Part shown: positions 34,443-44,404 of the stretch, in pieces | Layout of the letters: the number at the start of each line of letters is the position of its first letter | Numbering within the stretch: position 1 is the stretch's first letter | DNA from: Escherichia coli | Lineage (GTDB): Bacteria > Pseudomonadota > Gammaproteobacteria > Enterobacterales > Enterobacteriaceae | Assembly: GCF_046105845.1 (NCBI RefSeq) | Contig: NZ_CP151004.1 | Length of the DNA: 64,000 bases | Reading direction: 5' to 3' (one strand) | Position numbers and translations under genes: made by a program | Notes under the pieces: generated by a model | The model's database searches: none | Told to the model about the DNA's origin: nothing | Seen by the model: the letters and a program-made list of their open reading frames with translations, nothing else

Positions 34443-35297
34443 ATGACTGACAAAATGCAAAGTTTAGCTTTAGCCCCAGTTGGCAACCTGGATTCCTACA
34501 TCCGGGCAGCTAACGCGTGGCCGATGTTGTCGGCTGACGAGGAGCGGGCGCTGGCTGAAAAGCTGCATTACCATGGCGATCTGGAAGCAGCTAAAACGCT
34601 GATCCTGTCTCACCTGCGGTTTGTTGTTCATATTGCTCGTAATTATGCGGGCTATGGCCTGCCACAGGCGGATTTGATTCAGGAAGGTAACATCGGCCTG
34701 ATGAAAGCAGTGCGCCGTTTCAACCCGGAAGTGGGTGTGCGCCTGGTCTCCTTCGCCGTCCACTGGATCAAAGCAGAGATCCACGAATACGTTCTGCGTA
34801 ACTGGCGTATCGTCAAAGTTGCGACCACCAAAGCGCAGCGCAAACTGTTCTTCAACCTGCGTAAAACCAAGCAGCGTCTGGGCTGGTTTAATCAGGATGA
34901 AGTTGAAATGGTGGCCCGTGAACTGGGCGTAACCAGCAAAGACGTACGTGAGATGGAGTCGCGTATGGCGGCACAGGACATGACCTTTGACCTGTCTTCC
35001 GACGACGATTCCGACAGCCAGCCGATGGCTCCGGTGCTCTATCTGCAGGATAAATCATCTAACTTTGCTGACGGCATCGAAGATGATAACTGGGAAGAGC
35101 AGGCGGCAAACCGTCTGACCGACGCGATGCAAGGTCTGGACGAGCGTAGCCAGGATATCATCCGCGCGCGCTGGCTGGACGAAGACAACAAGTCCACGTT
35201 GCAGGAACTGGCTGACCGTTACGGTGTTTCCGCTGAGCGTGTGCGCCAGCTGGAAAAGAACGCGATGAAAAAACTTCGCGCTGCCATTGAAGCGTAA
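34443..35297 (+). CDS. rpoH: RNA polymerase heat-shock sigma factor sigma-32 (RpoH)
   Basis: 284-aa [46 protein letters not shown]...; sigma-70 family regions 2 and 4. Confidence 0.97.
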
Positions 35298-35316
35298 TTT
35301 CCGCTACTCAGCAGAG

Positions 35317-35351
35317 AACCCTGGATGAGAATCCGGGGTTTTTGTTTTTTG
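35317..35351 (+). terminator. rpoH rho-independent terminator
   Basis: AACCCTGGAT-GAGA-ATCCGGGGTT hairpin followed by TTTTGTTTTTT. Confidence 0.8.
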
Positions 35352-35568
35352 GACCTCTGCAATAATCAGTTTCCCCCTCCGGCAAAACGCCAATCCCCAC
35401 GCAGATTGTTAATAAACTGTCAAAATAGCTATTCCAATATCATAAAAATGGGGTATGTTTTAGCAGAGTATGCTGCTAAAGCACGGGTAGTCATGCATAA
35501 AACGAAATAAAGTGCTGAATCACAACACCACAACACACGTAATAACCAGAAGAATGGGGATTCTCAGG

Positions 35569-36672
35569 ATGAATATAAAGGGTAAAGCGTTACTGGCAGG
35601 ATGTATCGCGCTGGCATTCAGCAATATGGCTCTGGCAGAAGATATTAAAGTCGCGGTCGTGGGCGCGATGTCTGGTCCGGTGGCCCAGTACGGTGACCAG
35701 GAGTTCACTGGCGCAGAGCAGGCAGTAGCGGATATCAATGCTAAAGGCGGCATTAAAGGCAACAAACTGCAAATCGTAAAATATGACGATGCCTGTGACC
35801 CGAAACAGGCGGTTGCGGTGGCGAACAAAGTCGTTAACGACGGCATTAAATATGTGATTGGTCACCTCTGTTCTTCATCAACGCAGCCAGCGTCAGACAT
35901 CTATGAAGATGAAGGCATTTTAATGATCACCCCAGCGGCAACCGCGCCGGAGCTGACCGCCCGTGGCTATCAGCTGATCCTGCGCACTACCGGCCTGGAC
36001 TCCGACCAGGGGCCGACGGCGGCGAAATATATTCTTGAGAAAGTGAAACCGCAGCGTATTGCTATCGTCCACGACAAACAGCAGTACGGCGAAGGTCTGG
36101 CGCGTGCGGTGCAGGACGGCCTGAAGAAAGGCAATGCTAACGTGGTGTTCTTTGATGGTATCACCGCTGGGGAAAAAGATTTCTCAACGCTGGTGGCGCG
36201 TCTGAAAAAAGAGAATATCGACTTCGTTTACTACGGCGGTTATCACCCGGAAATGGGGCAAATCCTGCGTCAGGCACGCGCGGCAGGGCTGAAAACTCAG
36301 TTTATGGGGCCGGAAGGCGTGGCTAACGTCTCGCTGTCTAACATTGCGGGTGAATCAGCGGAAGGACTGCTGGTGACCAAGCCGAAGAACTACGATCAGG
36401 TTCCGGCGAACAAACCCATTGTTGATGCGATCAAAGCGAAAAAACAGGACCCAAGCGGCGCATTCGTTTGGACCACCTACGCCGCGCTGCAATCTTTGCA
36501 GGCGGGCCTGAATCAGTCTGACGATCCGGCAGAAATCGCCAAATACCTGAAAGCGAACTCCGTGGATACCGTGATGGGACCGCTGACCTGGGATGAGAAA
36601 GGCGATCTGAAAGGCTTTGAGTTCGGCGTATTTGACTGGCACGCCAACGGCACGGCGACCGATGCGAAGTAA
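35569..36672 (+). CDS. livJ: Leu/Ile/Val periplasmic binding protein LivJ
   Basis: Track ORF 35512..36672; start refined to ATG 35569 ([32 protein letters not shown]); highly similar to the livK product in this window. Confidence 0.93.
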
Positions 36673-36731
36673 TCATTAATCGGCAACTTTGGGTTGCCGC
36701 CAAATTGCTAATATCGAGTACGTTGCTTCAT

Positions 36732-36831
<100 letters not shown>

Positions 36832-36871
36832 ATTTCTCGTTGGTCATCACTTTTGAAATCAAACTTGACGA

Positions 36872-37255
36872 TTAACGCTTCTCCCAGCCGCCCTTTTGTG
36901 CCGTAAACCCCAATGCCTGCATAAACGTCGCCATCACGCCGCGATCTTCCACGCCAGCATCCGCCATCCACCAGCATGAAACGCCAGGATTGTTACGCAA
37001 AACCTCTTCCAGCAGATATTGCCCCACACCGCGACGGCGGGTGACTTCCCGCACGCGCAGGGAATCCAGTGCGCCCTCCGTGCCGCTTAAGGTTACCCGC
37101 ACGGCCGCGAGCAGGCGCTCGTTAAAACGCGCGGCGTAGATACGGTGGTTATCGTCAACCTGTAACGAGGAAGGGGAATACTCCGGCCAGATCTTTTGCA
37201 GGTCAATCCGGTCCTGGTCGCTAAAGTTTTCTAATCGAATGATGGTCAGCTTCAT
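36872..37255 (-). CDS. panZ: PanD maturation factor PanZ/PanM (GNAT fold; formerly YhhK)
   Basis: 127-aa ORF MKLTIIRLENFSDQDRIDLQKIWPEY...; located between livJ and livK. Confidence 0.88.
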   Translation of the reverse strand: MKLTIIRLENFSDQDRIDLQKIWPEYSPSSLQVDDNHRIYAARFNERLLAAVRVTLSGTEGALDSLRVREVTRRRGVGQYLLEEVLRNNPGVSCWWMADAGVEDRGVMATFMQALGFTAQKGGWEKR

Positions 37256-37678
37256 GGGGAACCCGTGTAAATCACAAAAGTGGAACCAGTGTAGCGAAAT
37301 AATTTAATCGGAGGCTTTCTCTTTTTTATTTCTTTTGGCAGGTGATTAATTTTTTTTCAGCAATAATTACAAAGTTAAAACATTAGAGAATGAAAAATAC
37401 CCAGCATAATCCCCTGAATGGTAGTGAATTATTCCGCTCTTTTTGCCGTTATTTTATGCTGACAACGGCACTTTTTTCTGTTTATCTATCAATAAATTCA
37501 GAATATTATCTGTTCTTAATCGACTGAAAAATAGGGATTTTAATCGCTATTATCACAAAATACTGCGCTAAACCCTTAATCAGACAGGCAAAAACAGTGC
37601 AGTATAAAAAAAGAACAGTCTGATTTGTTAACACATAAAAACAAAGCAACACAACATCACGAATGGGGATTTTTGACT

Positions 37679-38788
37679 ATGAAACGGAATGCGAAACCTA
37701 TCATCGCAGGGATGATTGCACTGGCAATTTCACACACCGCTATGGCTGACGATATTAAAGTCGCCGTTGTCGGCGCGATGTCCGGCCCGATTGCCCAGTG
37801 GGGCGATATGGAATTTAACGGCGCGCGTCAGGCGATTAAAGACATTAATGCCAAAGGGGGAATTAAAGGCGATAAGCTGGTGGGCGTGGAATATGACGAC
37901 GCCTGCGACCCGAAACAAGCCGTTGCGGTCGCCAACAAAATCGTTAACGACGGCATTAAATACGTTATTGGGCACTTGTGTTCCTCCTCTACCCAACCTG
38001 CATCAGATATCTACGAAGACGAAGGTATTCTGATGATCTCGCCGGGTGCGACCAACCCGGAGCTGACCCAACGCGGTTATCAATACATCATGCGTACTGC
38101 CGGGCTGGACTCCTCCCAGGGGCCAACGGCGGCAAAATACATTCTTGAGACGGTGAAGCCCCAGCGCATCGCCATCATTCACGACAAACAACAGTATGGC
38201 GAAGGGCTGGCACGTTCGGTGCAGGACGGGCTGAAAGCGGCTAACGCCAACGTTGTCTTCTTCGACGGTATTACCGCGGGTGAGAAAGATTTCTCCGCGC
38301 TGATCGCCCGCCTGAAAAAAGAAAATATCGACTTCGTTTACTACGGCGGTTACTACCCGGAAATGGGGCAGATGCTGCGCCAGGCCCGTTCTGTCGGCCT
38401 GAAAACCCAATTTATGGGGCCGGAAGGTGTGGGTAATGCGTCGCTGTCGAACATTGCTGGCGATGCTGCCGAAGGCATGTTGGTCACCATGCCAAAACGC
38501 TATGACCAGGACCCGGCAAACAAAGGCATCGTTGATGCGCTGAAAGCAGACAAGAAAGATCCATCCGGGCCATATGTCTGGATCACCTACGCGGCGGTGC
38601 AATCTCTGGCAACTGCCCTTGAGCGTACCGGCAGCGATGAGCCGCTGGCGCTGGTGAAAGATTTAAAAGCTAACGGTGCAAATACCGTGATTGGGCCGCT
38701 GAACTGGGATGAAAAAGGCGATCTTAAGGGATTTGATTTTGGTGTCTTCCAGTGGCACGCCGACGGTTCATCCACGGCAGCCAAGTGA
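37679..38788 (+). CDS. livK: Leucine-specific periplasmic binding protein LivK
   Basis: Track ORF 37625..38788; start refined to ATG 37679 ([32 protein letters not shown]). Confidence 0.93.
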
Positions 38789-38796
38789 TCATCCCA

Positions 38797-38822
38797 CCGC
38801 CCGTGAAAAACGGGCGGGTTTA
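38797..38822 (+). terminator. Hairpin plus short U-tract between livK and livHMGF; likely partial terminator
   Basis: CCGCCCG-TGAAAAA-CGGGCGG followed by GTTTA, 9 bp after the livK stop. Confidence 0.5.
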
Positions 38823-38835
38823 GAAAGGTTACCTT

Positions 38836-39762
38836 ATGTCTGAGCAGTTTTTGTATTTCTTGCAGCAGATGTTTAACGGCGTCACGCTGGGCAGTACCTA
38901 CGCGCTGATAGCCATCGGCTACACCATGGTTTACGGCATTATCGGCATGATCAACTTCGCCCACGGCGAGGTTTATATGATTGGCAGCTATGTCTCATTT
39001 ATGATCATCGCCGCGCTGATGATGATGGGCATTGATACCGGCTGGCTACTGGTGGCGGCTGGATTCGTCGGCGCAATCGTCATTGCCAGCGCCTACGGCT
39101 GGAGTATCGAACGGGTAGCCTATCGCCCGGTGCGTAACTCTAAGCGCCTGATTGCACTCATCTCTGCAATCGGTATGTCCATCTTCCTGCAAAACTACGT
39201 CAGCCTGACCGAAGGTTCGCGCGACGTGGCGCTGCCGAGCCTGTTTAACGGTCAGTGGGTGGTGGGCCATAGCGAAAACTTCTCTGCCTCTATTACTACC
39301 ATGCAGGCGGTGATCTGGATTGTCACCTTCCTCGCCATGCTGGCGCTGACGATTTTCATTCGCTATTCCCGTATGGGGCGCGCCTGTCGTGCTTGCGCGG
39401 AAGATCTGAAAATGGCGAGTCTGCTTGGCATTAACACCGACCGGGTGATTGCGCTGACCTTTGTGATTGGCGCGGCGATGGCGGCGGTGGCGGGCGTGCT
39501 GCTCGGTCAGTTCTACGGCGTAATTAACCCCTACATCGGCTTTATGGCCGGGATGAAAGCCTTTACTGCTGCGGTGCTCGGTGGGATTGGCAGCATTCCG
39601 GGAGCGATGATTGGCGGCCTGATTCTGGGGATTGCGGAGGCGCTCTCTTCTGCCTATCTGAGTACGGAATATAAAGATGTGGTCTCATTCGCCCTGCTGA
39701 TTCTGGTGTTGCTGGTGATGCCGACCGGTATTCTGGGTCGCCCGGAGGTAGAGAAAGTATGA
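38836..39762 (+). CDS. livH: Branched-chain amino acid ABC permease LivH
   Basis: 308-aa multi-TM ORF; first permease of livHMGF. Confidence 0.95.
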
Positions 39763-41036
39763 AACCGATGCATATTGCAATGGCGCTGCTCTCTGCCGCT
39801 ATGTTCTTTGTGCTGGCGGGCGTCTTTATGGGCGTGCAACTGGAGCTGGATGGCACCAAACTGGTGGTCGACACGGCTTCAGACATCCGTTGGCAGTGGG
39901 TGTTTATCGGCACGGCGGTGGTCTTTTTCTTCCAGCTTTTGCGACCGGCTTTCCAGAAAGGGCTAAAAAGCGTTTCCGGGCCGAAGTTTATTCTGCCCGC
40001 GATTGATGGCTCCACGGTGAAGCAGAAACTCTTCCTCGTGGCGCTGCTGGTGCTTGCGGTGGCGTGGCCGTTTATGGTCTCACGCGGAACGGTGGATATC
40101 GCCACCCTGACCATGATCTACATTATCCTCGGCCTCGGGCTGAACGTGGTGGTAGGGCTTTCCGGCCTGCTGGTGCTGGGGTACGGTGGCTTTTACGCCA
40201 TCGGCGCTTACACCTTTGCGCTGCTCAATCACTATTACGGTCTGGGGTTCTGGACCTGTCTGCCTATTGCCGGGTTAATGGCAGCGGCGGCGGGCTTCCT
40301 GCTCGGCTTCCCGGTGTTGCGTTTACGTGGCGACTATCTGGCGATCGTTACCCTCGGTTTCGGCGAAATTGTGCGCATATTGCTGCTCAATAACACTGAA
40401 ATCACCGGCGGCCCGAACGGAATCAGTCAGATCCCGAAACCGACGCTCTTCGGACTCGAGTTCAGCCGTACCGCCCGTGAAGGCGGCTGGGATACGTTCA
40501 GTAATTTCTTTGGCCTGAAATACGATCCCTCCGATCGTGTCATCTTCCTCTACCTGGTGGCGTTGCTGCTGGTGGTGCTAAGCCTGTTTGTCATTAACCG
40601 CCTGCTGCGGATGCCGCTGGGGCGTGCGTGGGAAGCGTTGCGTGAAGACGAGATCGCCTGCCGTTCGCTGGGTTTAAGCCCGCGTCGTATCAAGCTGACC
40701 GCTTTTACCATCAGTGCCGCGTTTGCCGGTTTTGCCGGAACGCTGTTTGCTGCGCGCCAGGGCTTTGTCAGCCCGGAATCCTTCACCTTTGCTGAATCGG
40801 CGTTTGTACTGGCGATAGTGGTGCTCGGCGGTATGGGATCGCAGTTTGCGGTGATTCTGGCGGCTGTTCTGCTGGTGGTGTCGCGCGAATTGATGCGTGA
40901 TTTCAACGAATACAGCATGTTAATGCTCGGTGGTTTGATGGTGCTGATGATGATCTGGCGTCCGCAGGGCTTGCTGCCCATGACGCGCCCGCAACTCAAG
41001 CTGAAAAACGGCGCAGCGAAAGGAGAGCAGGCATGA
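39759..41036 (+). CDS. livM: Branched-chain amino acid ABC permease LivM
   Basis: 425-aa multi-TM ORF; 4-bp overlaps with livH and livG. Confidence 0.95.
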
Positions 41037-41800
41037 GTCAGCCATTATTATCTGTTAACGGCCTGATGATGCGCTTCGGCGGCCTGCTGGCGGTGAACAA
41101 CGTCAATCTTGAACTGTACCCGCAGGAGATCGTCTCGTTAATCGGCCCTAACGGTGCCGGAAAAACCACGGTCTTCAACTGCCTGACCGGATTCTACAAA
41201 CCTACCGGCGGCACCATTTTACTGCGCGATCAGCATCTGGAAGGTTTGCCGGGGCAGCAAATTGCCCGCATGGGCGTGGTGCGTACCTTCCAGCATGTGC
41301 GTCTGTTCCGTGAAATGACGGTGATTGAAAACCTGCTGGTGGCGCAGCATCAGCAACTGAAAACCGGGCTGTTCTCTGGCCTGTTGAAAACGCCTTCTTT
41401 CCGTCGCGCCCAGAGCGAAGCGCTCGACCGCGCCGCTACCTGGCTTGAGCGCATTGGTTTGCTGGAACATGCCAACCGTCAGGCGAGTAACCTGGCCTAT
41501 GGTGACCAGCGCCGTCTTGAGATTGCCCGCTGCATGGTGACGCAGCCGGAGATTTTAATGCTCGACGAACCGGCAGCAGGTCTTAACCCGAAAGAGACGA
41601 AAGAGCTGGATGAGCTGATTGCCGAACTGCGTAACCATCACAACACCACTATCTTGTTGATTGAACACGATATGAAGCTGGTGATGGGGATTTCAGACAG
41701 AATTTACGTGGTCAATCAGGGGACGCCGCTGGCAAACGGTACGCCGGAGCAGATCCGTAATAACCCGGACGTGATCCGTGCCTATTTAGGTGAGGCATAA
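41033..41800 (+). CDS. livG: Branched-chain amino acid ABC ATPase LivG
   Basis: 255-aa ABC ATPase (GPNGAGKTT). Confidence 0.95.
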
Positions 41801-41801
41801 G

Positions 41802-42515
41802 ATGGAAAAAGTCATGTTGTCCTTTGACAAAGTCAGCGCCCACTACGGCAAAATCCAGGCGCTGCATGAGGTGAGCCTGCATATCAATCAGGGCGAGATT
41901 GTCACCCTGATTGGCGCGAACGGGGCGGGGAAAACCACCTTGCTCGGCACGTTATGCGGCGACCCACGCGCCACCAGCGGGCGAATTGTGTTTGATGATA
42001 AAGACATTACCGACTGGCAGACGGCGAAAATCATGCGCGAAGCGGTAGCGATTGTCCCGGAAGGGCGTCGCGTCTTCTCGCGCATGACGGTGGAAGAGAA
42101 TCTGGCGATGGGCGGCTTTTTTGCTGAACGCGACCAGTTCCAGGAGCGCATAAAGTGGGTGTATGAACTGTTTCCGCGTCTCCATGAACGCCGTGTTCAG
42201 CGGGCGGGAACCATGTCCGGCGGTGAGCAGCAGATGCTGGCGATTGGGCGCGCGCTGATGAGCAATCCGCGTTTATTGTTGCTTGATGAGCCATCGCTCG
42301 GTCTTGCGCCGATTATCATCCAGCAGATTTTCGACACCATCGAGCAGCTGCGCGAGCAGGGGATGACCATCTTCCTCGTCGAGCAGAACGCCAACCAGGC
42401 GCTGAAGCTCGCTGATCGCGGCTACGTGCTGGAAAACGGTCATGTGGTGCTCTCCGATACCGGCGATGCGCTGCTGGCAAACGAAGCGGTGAGAAGTGCG
42501 TATTTAGGCGGGTAA
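41802..42515 (+). CDS. livF: Branched-chain amino acid ABC ATPase LivF
   Basis: Track ORF 41790..42515; start refined to ATG 41802 (MEKVMLSFDKVSAHYGKIQAL...); ABC ATPase (GANGAGKTT). Confidence 0.93.
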   Translation: MEKVMLSFDKVSAHYGKIQALHEVSLHINQGEIVTLIGANGAGKTTLLGTLCGDPRATSGRIVFDDKDITDWQTAKIMREAVAIVPEGRRVFSRMTVEENLAMGGFFAERDQFQERIKWVYELFPRLHERRVQRAGTMSGGEQQMLAIGRALMSNPRLLLLDEPSLGLAPIIIQQIFDTIEQLREQGMTIFLVEQNANQALKLADRGYVLENGHVVLSDTGDALLANEAVRSAYLGG

Positions 42516-42575
42516 TAACACGTTGATTGATAAGGAGTCAAAAGACTCCTTTGAGACAGGTTACAAATGTAAAAT

Positions 42576-42676
42576 TGCCTGATGCGCTGCGCTTATCAGG
42601 CCTACTGGATGAGTTGCAATATATTGAATTTGCACGATCTTGTAGGCCGGATAAGGCATTTACGCCGCATCCGGCA
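42576..42676. repeat. REP elements downstream of livF
   Basis: TGCCTGATGCGCTGCGCTTATCAGGCCTAC and inverted TGTAGGCCGGATAAGGCATTTACGCCGCATCCGGCA. Confidence 0.9.
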
Positions 42677-42912
42677 TGAAACGATGAGCAATCTGTAGAG
42701 TTTGATTCAGACCTTCTATTTTTCCCGCTTATCCGTGCCCCATCTCCCATTTTCCCTCACCCGTACCGTCACCGCCTTGTCATCTTTCTGACACCTTACT
42801 ATCTTACAAATGTAACAAAAAGGTTATTTTTCTGTAATTCGAGCATGTCATGTTACCCCGCGAGCATAAAACGCGTGAATTCGCGCATTCGGTACAACAA
42901 GAGAGATAAACG

Positions 42913-44229
42913 ATGAAACCGTTACATTATACAGCTTCAGCACTGGCGCTCGGACTGGCGTTAATGGGGAATGCACAGGCAGTGACGACCATTCCGTTCT
43001 GGCATTCTATGGAAGGGGAACTGGGTAAAGAGGTGGATTCTCTTGCCCAACGTTTTAACGCCGAAAACCCGGATTACAAAATTGTACCGACCTATAAAGG
43101 CAACTACGAACAGAATTTAAGCGCGGGGATTGCCGCATTTCGTACCGGCAACGCTCCGGCTATTTTGCAGGTTTATGAAGTTGGCACCGCCACCATGATG
43201 GCGTCGAAAGCCATTAAACCGGTATATGACGTGTTTAAAGAGGCGGGGATTCAGTTCGATGAGTCGCAGTTTGTGCCGACGGTTTCAGGCTACTACTCCG
43301 ACAGCAAAACCGGCCACTTACTCTCCCAGCCGTTCAATAGCTCGACTCCTGTTCTCTATTACAACAAAGACGCCTTCAAGAAAGCGGGGTTAGACCCGGA
43401 ACAGCCGCCGAAAACTTGGCAGGATCTGGCGGACTATGCCGCAAAACTGAAAGCCTCCGGCATGAAGTGCGGCTACGCCAGCGGCTGGCAGGGCTGGATC
43501 CAACTGGAAAACTTTAGCGCCTGGAACGGTCTGCCGTTTGCCAGCAAAAACAACGGCTTTGACGGCACGGACGCGGTGCTGGAGTTCAACAAGCCGGAGC
43601 AGGTGAAACACATCGCCATGCTCGAAGAGATGAACAAGAAGGGCGACTTCAGCTACGTCGGTCGTAAGGATGAATCCACCGAGAAGTTCTATAACGGTGA
43701 TTGCGCGATGACCACCGCCTCTTCTGGTTCTCTTGCCAATATTCGTGAGTACGCCAAATTTAACTACGGCGTAGGCATGATGCCTTACGACGCTGACGCG
43801 AAAGATGCGCCACAAAACGCCATTATCGGCGGAGCCAGCCTGTGGGTAATGCAGGGTAAAGATAAAGAAACTTATACGGGTGTGGCGAAGTTCCTCGACT
43901 TCCTCGCGAAGCCAGAAAACGCTGCCGAGTGGCATCAGAAAACTGGTTATCTGCCAATCACCAAAGCGGCGTATGACCTGACCCGTGAGCAAGGCTTTTA
44001 TGAGAAAAACCCAGGTGCGGATACCGCGACGCGTCAGATGCTGAATAAGCCGCCGTTACCGTTCACCAAAGGGCTGCGTCTGGGCAACATGCCGCAGATC
44101 CGCGTGATTGTGGATGAAGAGCTGGAGAGCGTGTGGACCGGTAAGAAGACACCACAGCAGGCACTGGATACCGCCGTTGAGCGTGGGAACCAGTTACTGC
44201 GCCGCTTTGAGCAGTCTACGAAGTCTTAA
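42913..44229 (+). CDS. ugpB: sn-glycerol-3-phosphate periplasmic binding protein UgpB
   Basis: 438-aa ORF with signal peptide [23 protein letters not shown]. Confidence 0.95.
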
Positions 44230-44237
44230 TTCTCTTA

Positions 44238-44381
44238 CCCTCACCCTAACCCTCTCCCAAAGGGAGAGGGGACCGATCGGCGTGGTATCCAGGTGCCGTG
44301 TCGGTTTGCAACTTCGCTCGGTGGGAAAGTATGCACCGCCTTTCTCCCTCGCCCCTCTGGGGAGAGGGCCGGGGTGAGGGG
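44238..44381. repeat. Pair of inverted GC-rich repeats (CCCTCACCCTAACCCTCTCCC ... GGAGAGGGCCGGGGTGAGGGG) in the ugpB-ugpA intergenic region
   Basis: Two oppositely oriented copies ~100 bp apart, each with its own short hairpin (CCCTCTCCC-AAA-GGGAGAGGG; CCCTCT-GGGG-AGAGGG). Confidence 0.65.
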
Positions 44382-44404
44382 ATCACAACACGAAGAGTTT
44401 AACT

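Follow-up and report, generated by a model that had tools for sequence, protein, structure and literature searches.

A stem-loop conserved as a structure between livK and livH of Escherichia coli and its likely role at the 3' end of a livK-only mRNA

The intercistronic region between livK and livH of Escherichia coli contains a short GC-rich stem-loop that is under selection as a structure across the Enterobacterales, and a livK-only RNA ending at this hairpin exists in vivo in strain K-12. Most likely a discrete livK-only mRNA has this stem-loop as its 3'-terminal structure, and capping that RNA is the conserved job of the hairpin. As for the way in which it works, we lean towards a barrier as the core function of the stem-loop, with termination of transcription as an add-on. 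We infer the exonuclease-barrier role, the share of termination and the effect on protein ratios as set out below.

The DNA analysed here (the window) is a stretch of 64,000 nucleotides from E. coli. The liv genes were identified with NCBIfam as those for a LivK/LivJ-type binding protein, LivH, LivM, LivG and LivF, and the gene order livKHMGF is that of K-12, which confirms the assignment to livK and livHMGF made in a sequence-only reading of the site. The coordinates (38797-38822) and the description that it gave, namely a hairpin plus a short U-run (three U) between livK and livHMGF, were also correct. The features of the locus are as follows.
35512-36672, livJ (NCBIfam)
36872-37255, minus strand, panM/panZ (NCBIfam)
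37679-38788, plus strand, livK, leucine-specific periplasmic binding protein, first gene of livKHMGF (NCBIfam NF011933, 700 bits)
38705-38712, plus strand, TGGGATGA, livK codons Trp-Asp-Glu, tentative 5' strand of a long-range helix with 38789-38796
38789-38796, plus strand, TCATCCCA, conserved flanking motif directly 5' of the stem (conserved columns in alignments A1 and A2)
38797-38804, plus strand, 5' arm of the stem-loop, CCGCCCGT (read from the sequence)
38805-38809, plus strand, loop, GAAAA (read from the sequence)
38810-38817, plus strand, 3' arm of the stem-loop, ACGGGCGG (read from the sequence)
38818-38822, plus strand, G at 38818, TTT at 38819-38821, then A at 38822 (read from the sequence)
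38824-38828, plus strand, Shine-Dalgarno sequence of livH, AAAGG (read from the sequence)
38836-38838, plus strand, start codon ATG of livH (read from the sequence)
38836-39762, plus strand, livH, downstream of the hairpin (NCBIfam equivalog set NF008011, NF008450, NF008449 and NF008626 for livHMGF)
39759-41036, plus strand, livM, one of the permease/ATPase genes (NCBIfam equivalog)
41033-41800, plus strand, livG, one of the permease/ATPase genes (NCBIfam equivalog)
41802-42515, plus strand, livF, one of the permease/ATPase genes (NCBIfam equivalog)

The livK ORF spans 37625-38788 and ends with the stop codon TGA (38786-38788); its start ATG was placed at 37679 according to the sequence and the 1110-nt length of the K-12 gene. 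The livK-livH spacer has 47 nt and reads TCATCCCA-CCGCCCGT-GAAAA-ACGGGCGG-G-TTT-AGAAAGGTTACCTT-ATG, where the last triplet is the livH start codon. The junction is found in 5,425 of the 5,426 complete E. coli genomes, which match an 801-nt query across the site with 96-100% identity. In addition, sub-threshold Rfam matches to naRNA4/ES036 (REP-like) are present at 36707-36873 (3' of livJ) and 42559-42682 (3' of livF), at the ends of both liv transcription units. The ugp operon next door has the same layout, with GC-rich inverted repeats 3' of ugpB (spacer 44230-44404; arms 44238-44271 and 44347-44380, including a perfect hairpin at 44250-44270), in place of which a REP element stands at the ugpB-ugpA junction of K-12. 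In Serratia and Rahnella the livK-livH spacer contains repeats of the type GGGAGAGG...GGGTGAGGG, similar to those between ugpB and ugpA in the window, and so does the glnH-glnP junction of K-12.

The stem has 8 bp, seven of which are G-C, and is closed by a 5-nt loop; it is thus the GC-rich stem-loop (about 5-14 bp, short loop) that an intrinsic terminator calls for. It starts 8 nt past the livK stop codon, that is, as a stable stem-loop directly 3' of the proximal cistron, the position of a decay barrier. The fold has a free energy of -17.7 kcal/mol (z = -3.69; one of 200 shuffles as good, for a 29-nt segment) and is kept in contexts of 66 and 211 nt, in the MFE and centroid structures alike. 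Four distinct perfect 8-bp hairpins with at least six GC pairs occur in the 64-kb window, against 1.55 ± 1.4 per shuffled window; the expectation for one 47-nt spacer is therefore about 0.001, and the livK-livH hairpin is improbable by chance. There is a loop polymorphism within Escherichia: the window has GAAAA (38805-38810) closed by U-A, and K-12 has AAAAU or a triloop closed by U.G (6431-6436 of the K-12 locus L001), a difference of three bases with the stem unchanged. The MFE fold also contains a weak second hairpin at 38818-38845 (about -5 kcal/mol), in which UUU and the livH Shine-Dalgarno AAGG face CCUU and livH codons 2-4; it was dropped because it is not conserved in other genera.

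Other classes of element were considered for the same site. A terminator on the opposite strand was rejected, since the minus strand has no T-run 3' of the stem. The hairpin is the only copy in the 64-kb window by pattern and covariance model searches, it belongs to no repeat family there, and an Rfam search of 35000-43000 at permissive thresholds gave no match at the site, naRNA4 included, so that it was not assigned to the REP/BIME elements. Nor does it look like a 3'UTR-derived Hfq sRNA of the SroC type, having only UUU, a 47-nt spacer and no Rfam family; no sRNA is annotated at livK-livH in K-12. No paper discussing the hairpin was found in the literature searched, and liv entries are absent from the supplements of TERMITe, SMRT-Cappable-seq and Esquerre 2014, the last of which plots the liv cistrons.

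The main evidence for function comes from comparison of 80 Enterobacterales loci around LivH homologues (L002-L081), from which the junctions were extracted. A hairpin of -12 kcal/mol or lower ending 14-22 nt before the livH ATG is present in 64% of 77 orthologous junctions, compared with 10% of dinucleotide shuffles. Covariation was measured in 35 junctions on a plain MAFFT alignment that had not been fitted to the structure. The eight stem pairs are formed in 89.8% of the cells, sliding the 3' partner by 1-3 columns lowers this to 38-50%, and compensatory changes on both sides occur in all eight pairs (48 cells). Moreover, the covariation score of 0.507, which compares with 0.06-0.16 in the slid controls, was matched by none of 500 shuffles, and RNAalifold, run independently, returned exactly these eight pairs. 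The stem alignment also contains 20 G.U cells, which would be A.C mismatches on the other strand; this suggests that the structure belongs to the sense-strand RNA. The stem sequences themselves are unrelated from lineage to lineage:
CCGCCCG in Escherichia, Salmonella, Citrobacter and Enterobacter
CTCTGCGGGC in Phytobacter
CCTTCCGGG in Buttiauxella and Cedecea
GCCCCCG in Pectobacterium
GCCTCTGCC in Shimwellia
ATAGCGCCTG in Photorhabdus

Compensation in every pair and unrelated stems are what selection on a structure, independent of the flanking sequence, leaves behind, as expected of a decay barrier. The hairpin is almost lost in Trabulsiella, and Yersinia, many Serratia, Rahnella and Pantoea have long livK-livH spacers with other elements. 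That the hairpin has no function, being what is left of a repeat element or a palindrome that arose by chance, might be thought of, since nearby junctions carry REP-like or other repeat elements; its sequence is unique in the window and without an Rfam match, however, and the strong compensatory covariation across Enterobacterales effectively refutes this idea, to which we give almost no credence.

The sequence past the stem behaves differently. An intrinsic terminator has a U-rich tract of about 7-9 nt directly 3' of the stem, and the 8 nt found here are G-UUU-AGAA, with three U. A consensus terminator scan (at least five T in 8 nt) does not call the livK-livH site, although it does call a hairpin at 35314-35343, just 3' of the ORF 34443-35297, which by synteny with K-12 is rpoH. 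A score in the style of d'Aubenton-Carafa (with modern energy parameters) was dropped in favour of raw U counts, because the canonical hairpin and U-run 3' of ORF 34443-35297 also scored below zero. The orthologous hairpins have 0-4 T in the 8 nt past the stem, and 0-3 in all but one of them. UUU follows the stem in about nine of the 35 aligned junctions (Escherichia, Salmonella, some Citrobacter, Phytobacter and Pluralibacter); Enterobacter, Leclercia, Buttiauxella, Mangrovibacter, Pectobacterium and Dickeya are without it. The post-stem sequences are:
GUAUGAAA or GUAUAAAA in Enterobacter and other Citrobacter
GACUAGAA in Leclercia
CAUUAGAA in Buttiauxella
ACAGAAAA in Mangrovibacter
AGCAUUUA in Pectobacterium
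AUGUCUAA in Dickeya

Thus most genera with the hairpin lack the U-run, and selection acts on the stem-loop rather than on a terminator U-tract. Since the stem is kept and the U-run is not, a 3'-exonuclease barrier, which needs no U, explains the conservation better than a terminator does. The stem-loop alone fits the needs of such a barrier, and it is not sufficient for intrinsic termination.

An RNA 3' end at the site is on record for K-12. The Term-seq set of Adams et al. 2021 (PMC7815308) for MG1655 in M63 glucose comprises 1,053 curated dominant 3' ends, and their Supplementary file 1 lists for livK an end at 3596418(-) of the class 'primary' with an average read count of 27,317; the sequence there is given as ...CCACCGCCCGTAAAATGCGGGCGGGTTT before the end and AGAAAGGTTA after it, and is also written as ...GCGGGCGGGTTT followed by AGAAAGGTTA. 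According to the coordinates, which were checked against the K-12 sequence, this position is the last U of GGGUUU and is equivalent to 38821 of the window. Hence an RNA ending at the hairpin exists in vivo, at or just after the stem as for an intrinsic terminator, on the evidence of K-12, whose loop differs by three bases from that of the strain in the window. The end appears only in the M63-glucose (third) sheet, and the LB lists pass from ugpB to rpoH. The liv operon is repressed in rich medium, so its absence in LB is as expected. Furthermore, the mapped end is only 3-4 nt from the base of the stem, against 5-8 nt for the canonical terminators of sgrS, ryhB and dapD in the same table. The 3' ends of intrinsic terminators usually lie 7-8 nt from the stem. 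With an end only 3-4 nt away, trimming is needed under any model. The RNase E consensus RN↓WUU fits GG↓UUU but would put the end 3 nt farther upstream than was mapped, and was not adopted as its origin.

A second Term-seq 3' end in the same table (PMC7815308) is at K-12 3597520 (minus), corresponding to about 37719 of the window, 40 nt inside livK. It has an average read count of 34,570 and is seen in M63 only. Considering that livK is a target of GcvB, this internal end may be sRNA-associated or a processing end.

The 3' end at the hairpin bears directly on the earlier suggestion that the structure attenuates read-through from the binding-protein gene into the permease and ATPase genes. The suggestion is partly supported: the hairpin has an RNA end in vivo, and the U-run of three in eight, the silence of the terminator scan and the absence of UUU from most of the genera that keep the hairpin speak against an origin of this end by transcription attenuation. 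In its full form the suggestion amounts to a leaky intrinsic (Rho-independent) terminator, where the hairpin and UUU free some of the RNA polymerases and read-through alone sets the livK:livHMGF ratio. We regard this as unlikely, while it has several points on its side: the GC-rich 8-bp stem with its 5-nt loop is followed directly by G-UUU, the Term-seq end falls on the last U, and three-U tails behind a strong stem gave 9-33% termination in Clostridia (PMC9045158). There is also the precedent of gltI-gltJ, packed as tightly (19 nt from stem to ATG), and the stem lies 8 nt past the livK stop codon, so that a terminating ribosome could make termination leaky. Besides the U-run, its missing counterparts and the unsuccessful scan, what weakens it is the short distance between stem and 3' end, with the trimming that this demands anyway, and the blindness of Term-seq to the difference between termination and processing. 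Such ends can arise from intrinsic termination, from Rho termination plus trimming, or from RNase processing (PMC7815308), and in Term-seq a termination site and an exonuclease-trimmed end look alike. Probably, UUU adds modest, leaky intrinsic termination in Escherichia, Salmonella and a few other genera.

For the favoured reading as a barrier, we assume that 3'-to-5' exonucleases of the PNPase or RNase II type would halt at the base of the GC-rich stem. The initial end on which they act might be made by weak termination at UUU in Escherichia-type sequences, or by endonuclease cleavage of read-through RNA in the single-stranded, A/U-rich ribosome-binding region of livH. The livK segment would then outlive and outnumber the livHMGF segment, and the periplasmic binding protein would be produced in excess of the membrane complex. 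Two observations do not sit easily with the barrier: a trimmed product of intrinsic termination would have the same end as the one mapped, on the last U, and UUU is retained in Escherichia and Salmonella. Both a barrier and a leaky terminator predict differential expression across the junction, as the sequence-only reading proposed. A third way of making the initial end would be Rho-dependent termination inside a poorly translated livH, with the hairpin as a mere trimming stop. It is known that 3' ends made by Rho are trimmed back to stable stems (PMC7815308), but no sense-strand Rho region is listed at liv, where the BCM data are uninformative, being from LB only, in which liv is repressed. 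We think this origin very unlikely; it is a variant of the barrier and differs from it only in how the initial end is made.

The distance between the stem and livH is nearly fixed. In the window the 3' end of the stem is 18 nt from the livH ATG, and of 49 orthologous hairpins, 29 keep exactly this distance, 11 are one nucleotide closer (17 nt) and three one farther away (19 nt), so that 43 of the 49 are at 17-19 nt although stems and spacers are unrelated. The distance from the livK stop codon to the stem ranges from 8 to 185 nt among the orthologues, and all insertions in the orthologous spacers, among them mobile-element-like ones (for example in L017, L021, L030 and L046), are upstream of the stem. 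The fixed spacing could mean that the stem is relevant to livH initiation or to RNase access. From this one may argue that the hairpin is there mainly for livH, insulating or limiting its standby region or, as a stem-loop, shielding the 5' end of a processed livHMGF RNA, and that it sets the translation or stability of livH rather than ending the livK RNA. In accordance with this, 18 nt is the smallest distance from stem to start among 13 binding-protein junctions of K-12, with gltI at 19 nt. On the other hand, the hairpins of other binding-protein junctions lie 22-73 nt from the next start, the mapped 3' end is left unexplained, and the spacing may merely reflect the closest approach of a stem to the ribosome-binding site together with rare indels in the 6-nt spacer beside this constrained site. 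We therefore consider a role mainly for livH improbable.

The motif TCATCCCA directly 5' of the stem, whose consensus is [TC/TT]ATCCC across Enterobacteriaceae, is a perfect complement of TGGGATGA, 76 nt upstream in livK. A helix of the two, abutting the stem, is predicted in the MFE and centroid structures of the 211-nt fold, and an 8-mer complement of this kind arises in 142 of 20000 shuffles (0.7%). The pairing is formed in 90.5% of the cells in 25 species; the changes are one-sided only, because the coding partner is invariant, and in the Citrobacter youngae group a synonymous GAT-to-GAC change breaks one pair without compensation. The evidence that this modelled long-range helix is real is thus no more than suggestive. 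E. whittamii has AAATCCCT instead of TCATCCCA, and AAATCCCT is perfectly complementary to another site in livK (AGGGATTT). On this basis one could imagine the hairpin as part of a translation-sensing module docked on the ribosome-binding site of livH, a proposal we hold to be doubtful. The TCATCCCA/TGGGATGA helix would stack directly on the stem and be melted by ribosomes finishing livK, as would the base of the stem in Escherichia, where 8 nt separate it from the stop codon. Whether polymerases read through into livHMGF, or RNases reach the ribosome-binding site of livH, would then hinge on the translation of livK, and repression by GcvB would be one condition that changes it. The near-fixed spacing and the flanking complementary motif could in that case reveal a coupling of the formation of the 3' end of one cistron with the translation of the next.

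The result adds liv, in E. coli and related bacteria, to the ABC importers with a standard device, an intercistronic stem-loop behind the binding-protein gene that gives an abundant monocistronic mRNA for this protein; it matters little beyond annotation. There is a methodological lesson as well: since selection acts on the stem and not on the U-run, an intercistronic 'hairpin + few U' should not be annotated automatically as a transcriptional attenuator.

Thirteen K-12 junctions at which the gene of a periplasmic binding protein is followed by another gene of its operon were surveyed; all 13 have a hairpin of -16 kcal/mol or lower, and most lack a U-tract. U-rich tails are found only at gltI-gltJ (7 T of 8), oppA-oppB (6 T) and mglB-mglA (5 T). 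REP hairpins are present at malE-malF, pstS-pstC and ugpB-ugpA, and the tails at hisJ-hisQ, araF-araG, potF-potG, glnH-glnP and liv are poor in U. Making binding protein in excess by means of an element behind the first gene has been documented (PMC4474525, PMC9045158), and it commonly works through 3' stabilisation of a monocistronic mRNA (PMC4474525).

One of the closest known systems is gltI-sroC-gltJKL of Salmonella and E. coli, which has a leaky Rho-independent terminator (Miyakoshi et al. 2015, PMC4474525). As at liv, its hairpin is directly 3' of the binding-protein gene of an amino-acid ABC importer under GcvB and Lrp, it yields a monocistronic binding-protein mRNA plus some read-through, and the packing is alike, the gltI stem ending 19 nt before the gltJ start compared with 18 nt at liv. 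The annotated 3' end of SroC in K-12 gltI-sroC-gltJ (L082, 4670-4844) is 11 nt before the gltJ start codon, so the U-tract of the terminator overlaps the ribosome-binding site of gltJ. The two differ in that the U-tract of gltI is canonical (7 T of 8) and its spacer of 169 nt gives the Hfq-binding sRNA SroC, whereas liv has UUU only, a 47-nt spacer and no sign of an sRNA. In cellulolytic Clostridia, experiments showed that stem-loops 3' of binding-protein genes determine the transcript ratios within ABC importers, through termination efficiency as well as stem stability; many tails have fewer than five U, and at least 15 such stem-loops were predicted in E. coli (PMC9045158). The Clostridia belong to a different phylum with a different RNA polymerase and longer stems, and the experiments there were done on systems other than liv.

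Stable intercistronic hairpins without a U-tract follow the binding-protein gene at malE-malF and hisJ-hisQ as well, and in this they resemble the liv hairpin. According to work of the Higgins laboratory in 1987-88, these REP or stem-loop 3' stabilisers reportedly block 3'-to-5' exonucleases and raise the expression of the upstream gene relative to the permease genes. The liv hairpin is unlike them in being single, unique, non-REP and followed by a short U-run. Chen, Beatty, Cohen and Belasco are said to have described in 1988 an intercistronic 'mRNA decay terminator' hairpin in the puf operon of Rhodobacter capsulatus. There too a stem-loop stands between an abundant proximal and a scarcer distal segment and acts as a decay barrier, in an unrelated operon and organism and as a larger structure. 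All in all, the liv hairpin is one more ordinary case of a well-known design, and its 3' end is already in a public dataset.
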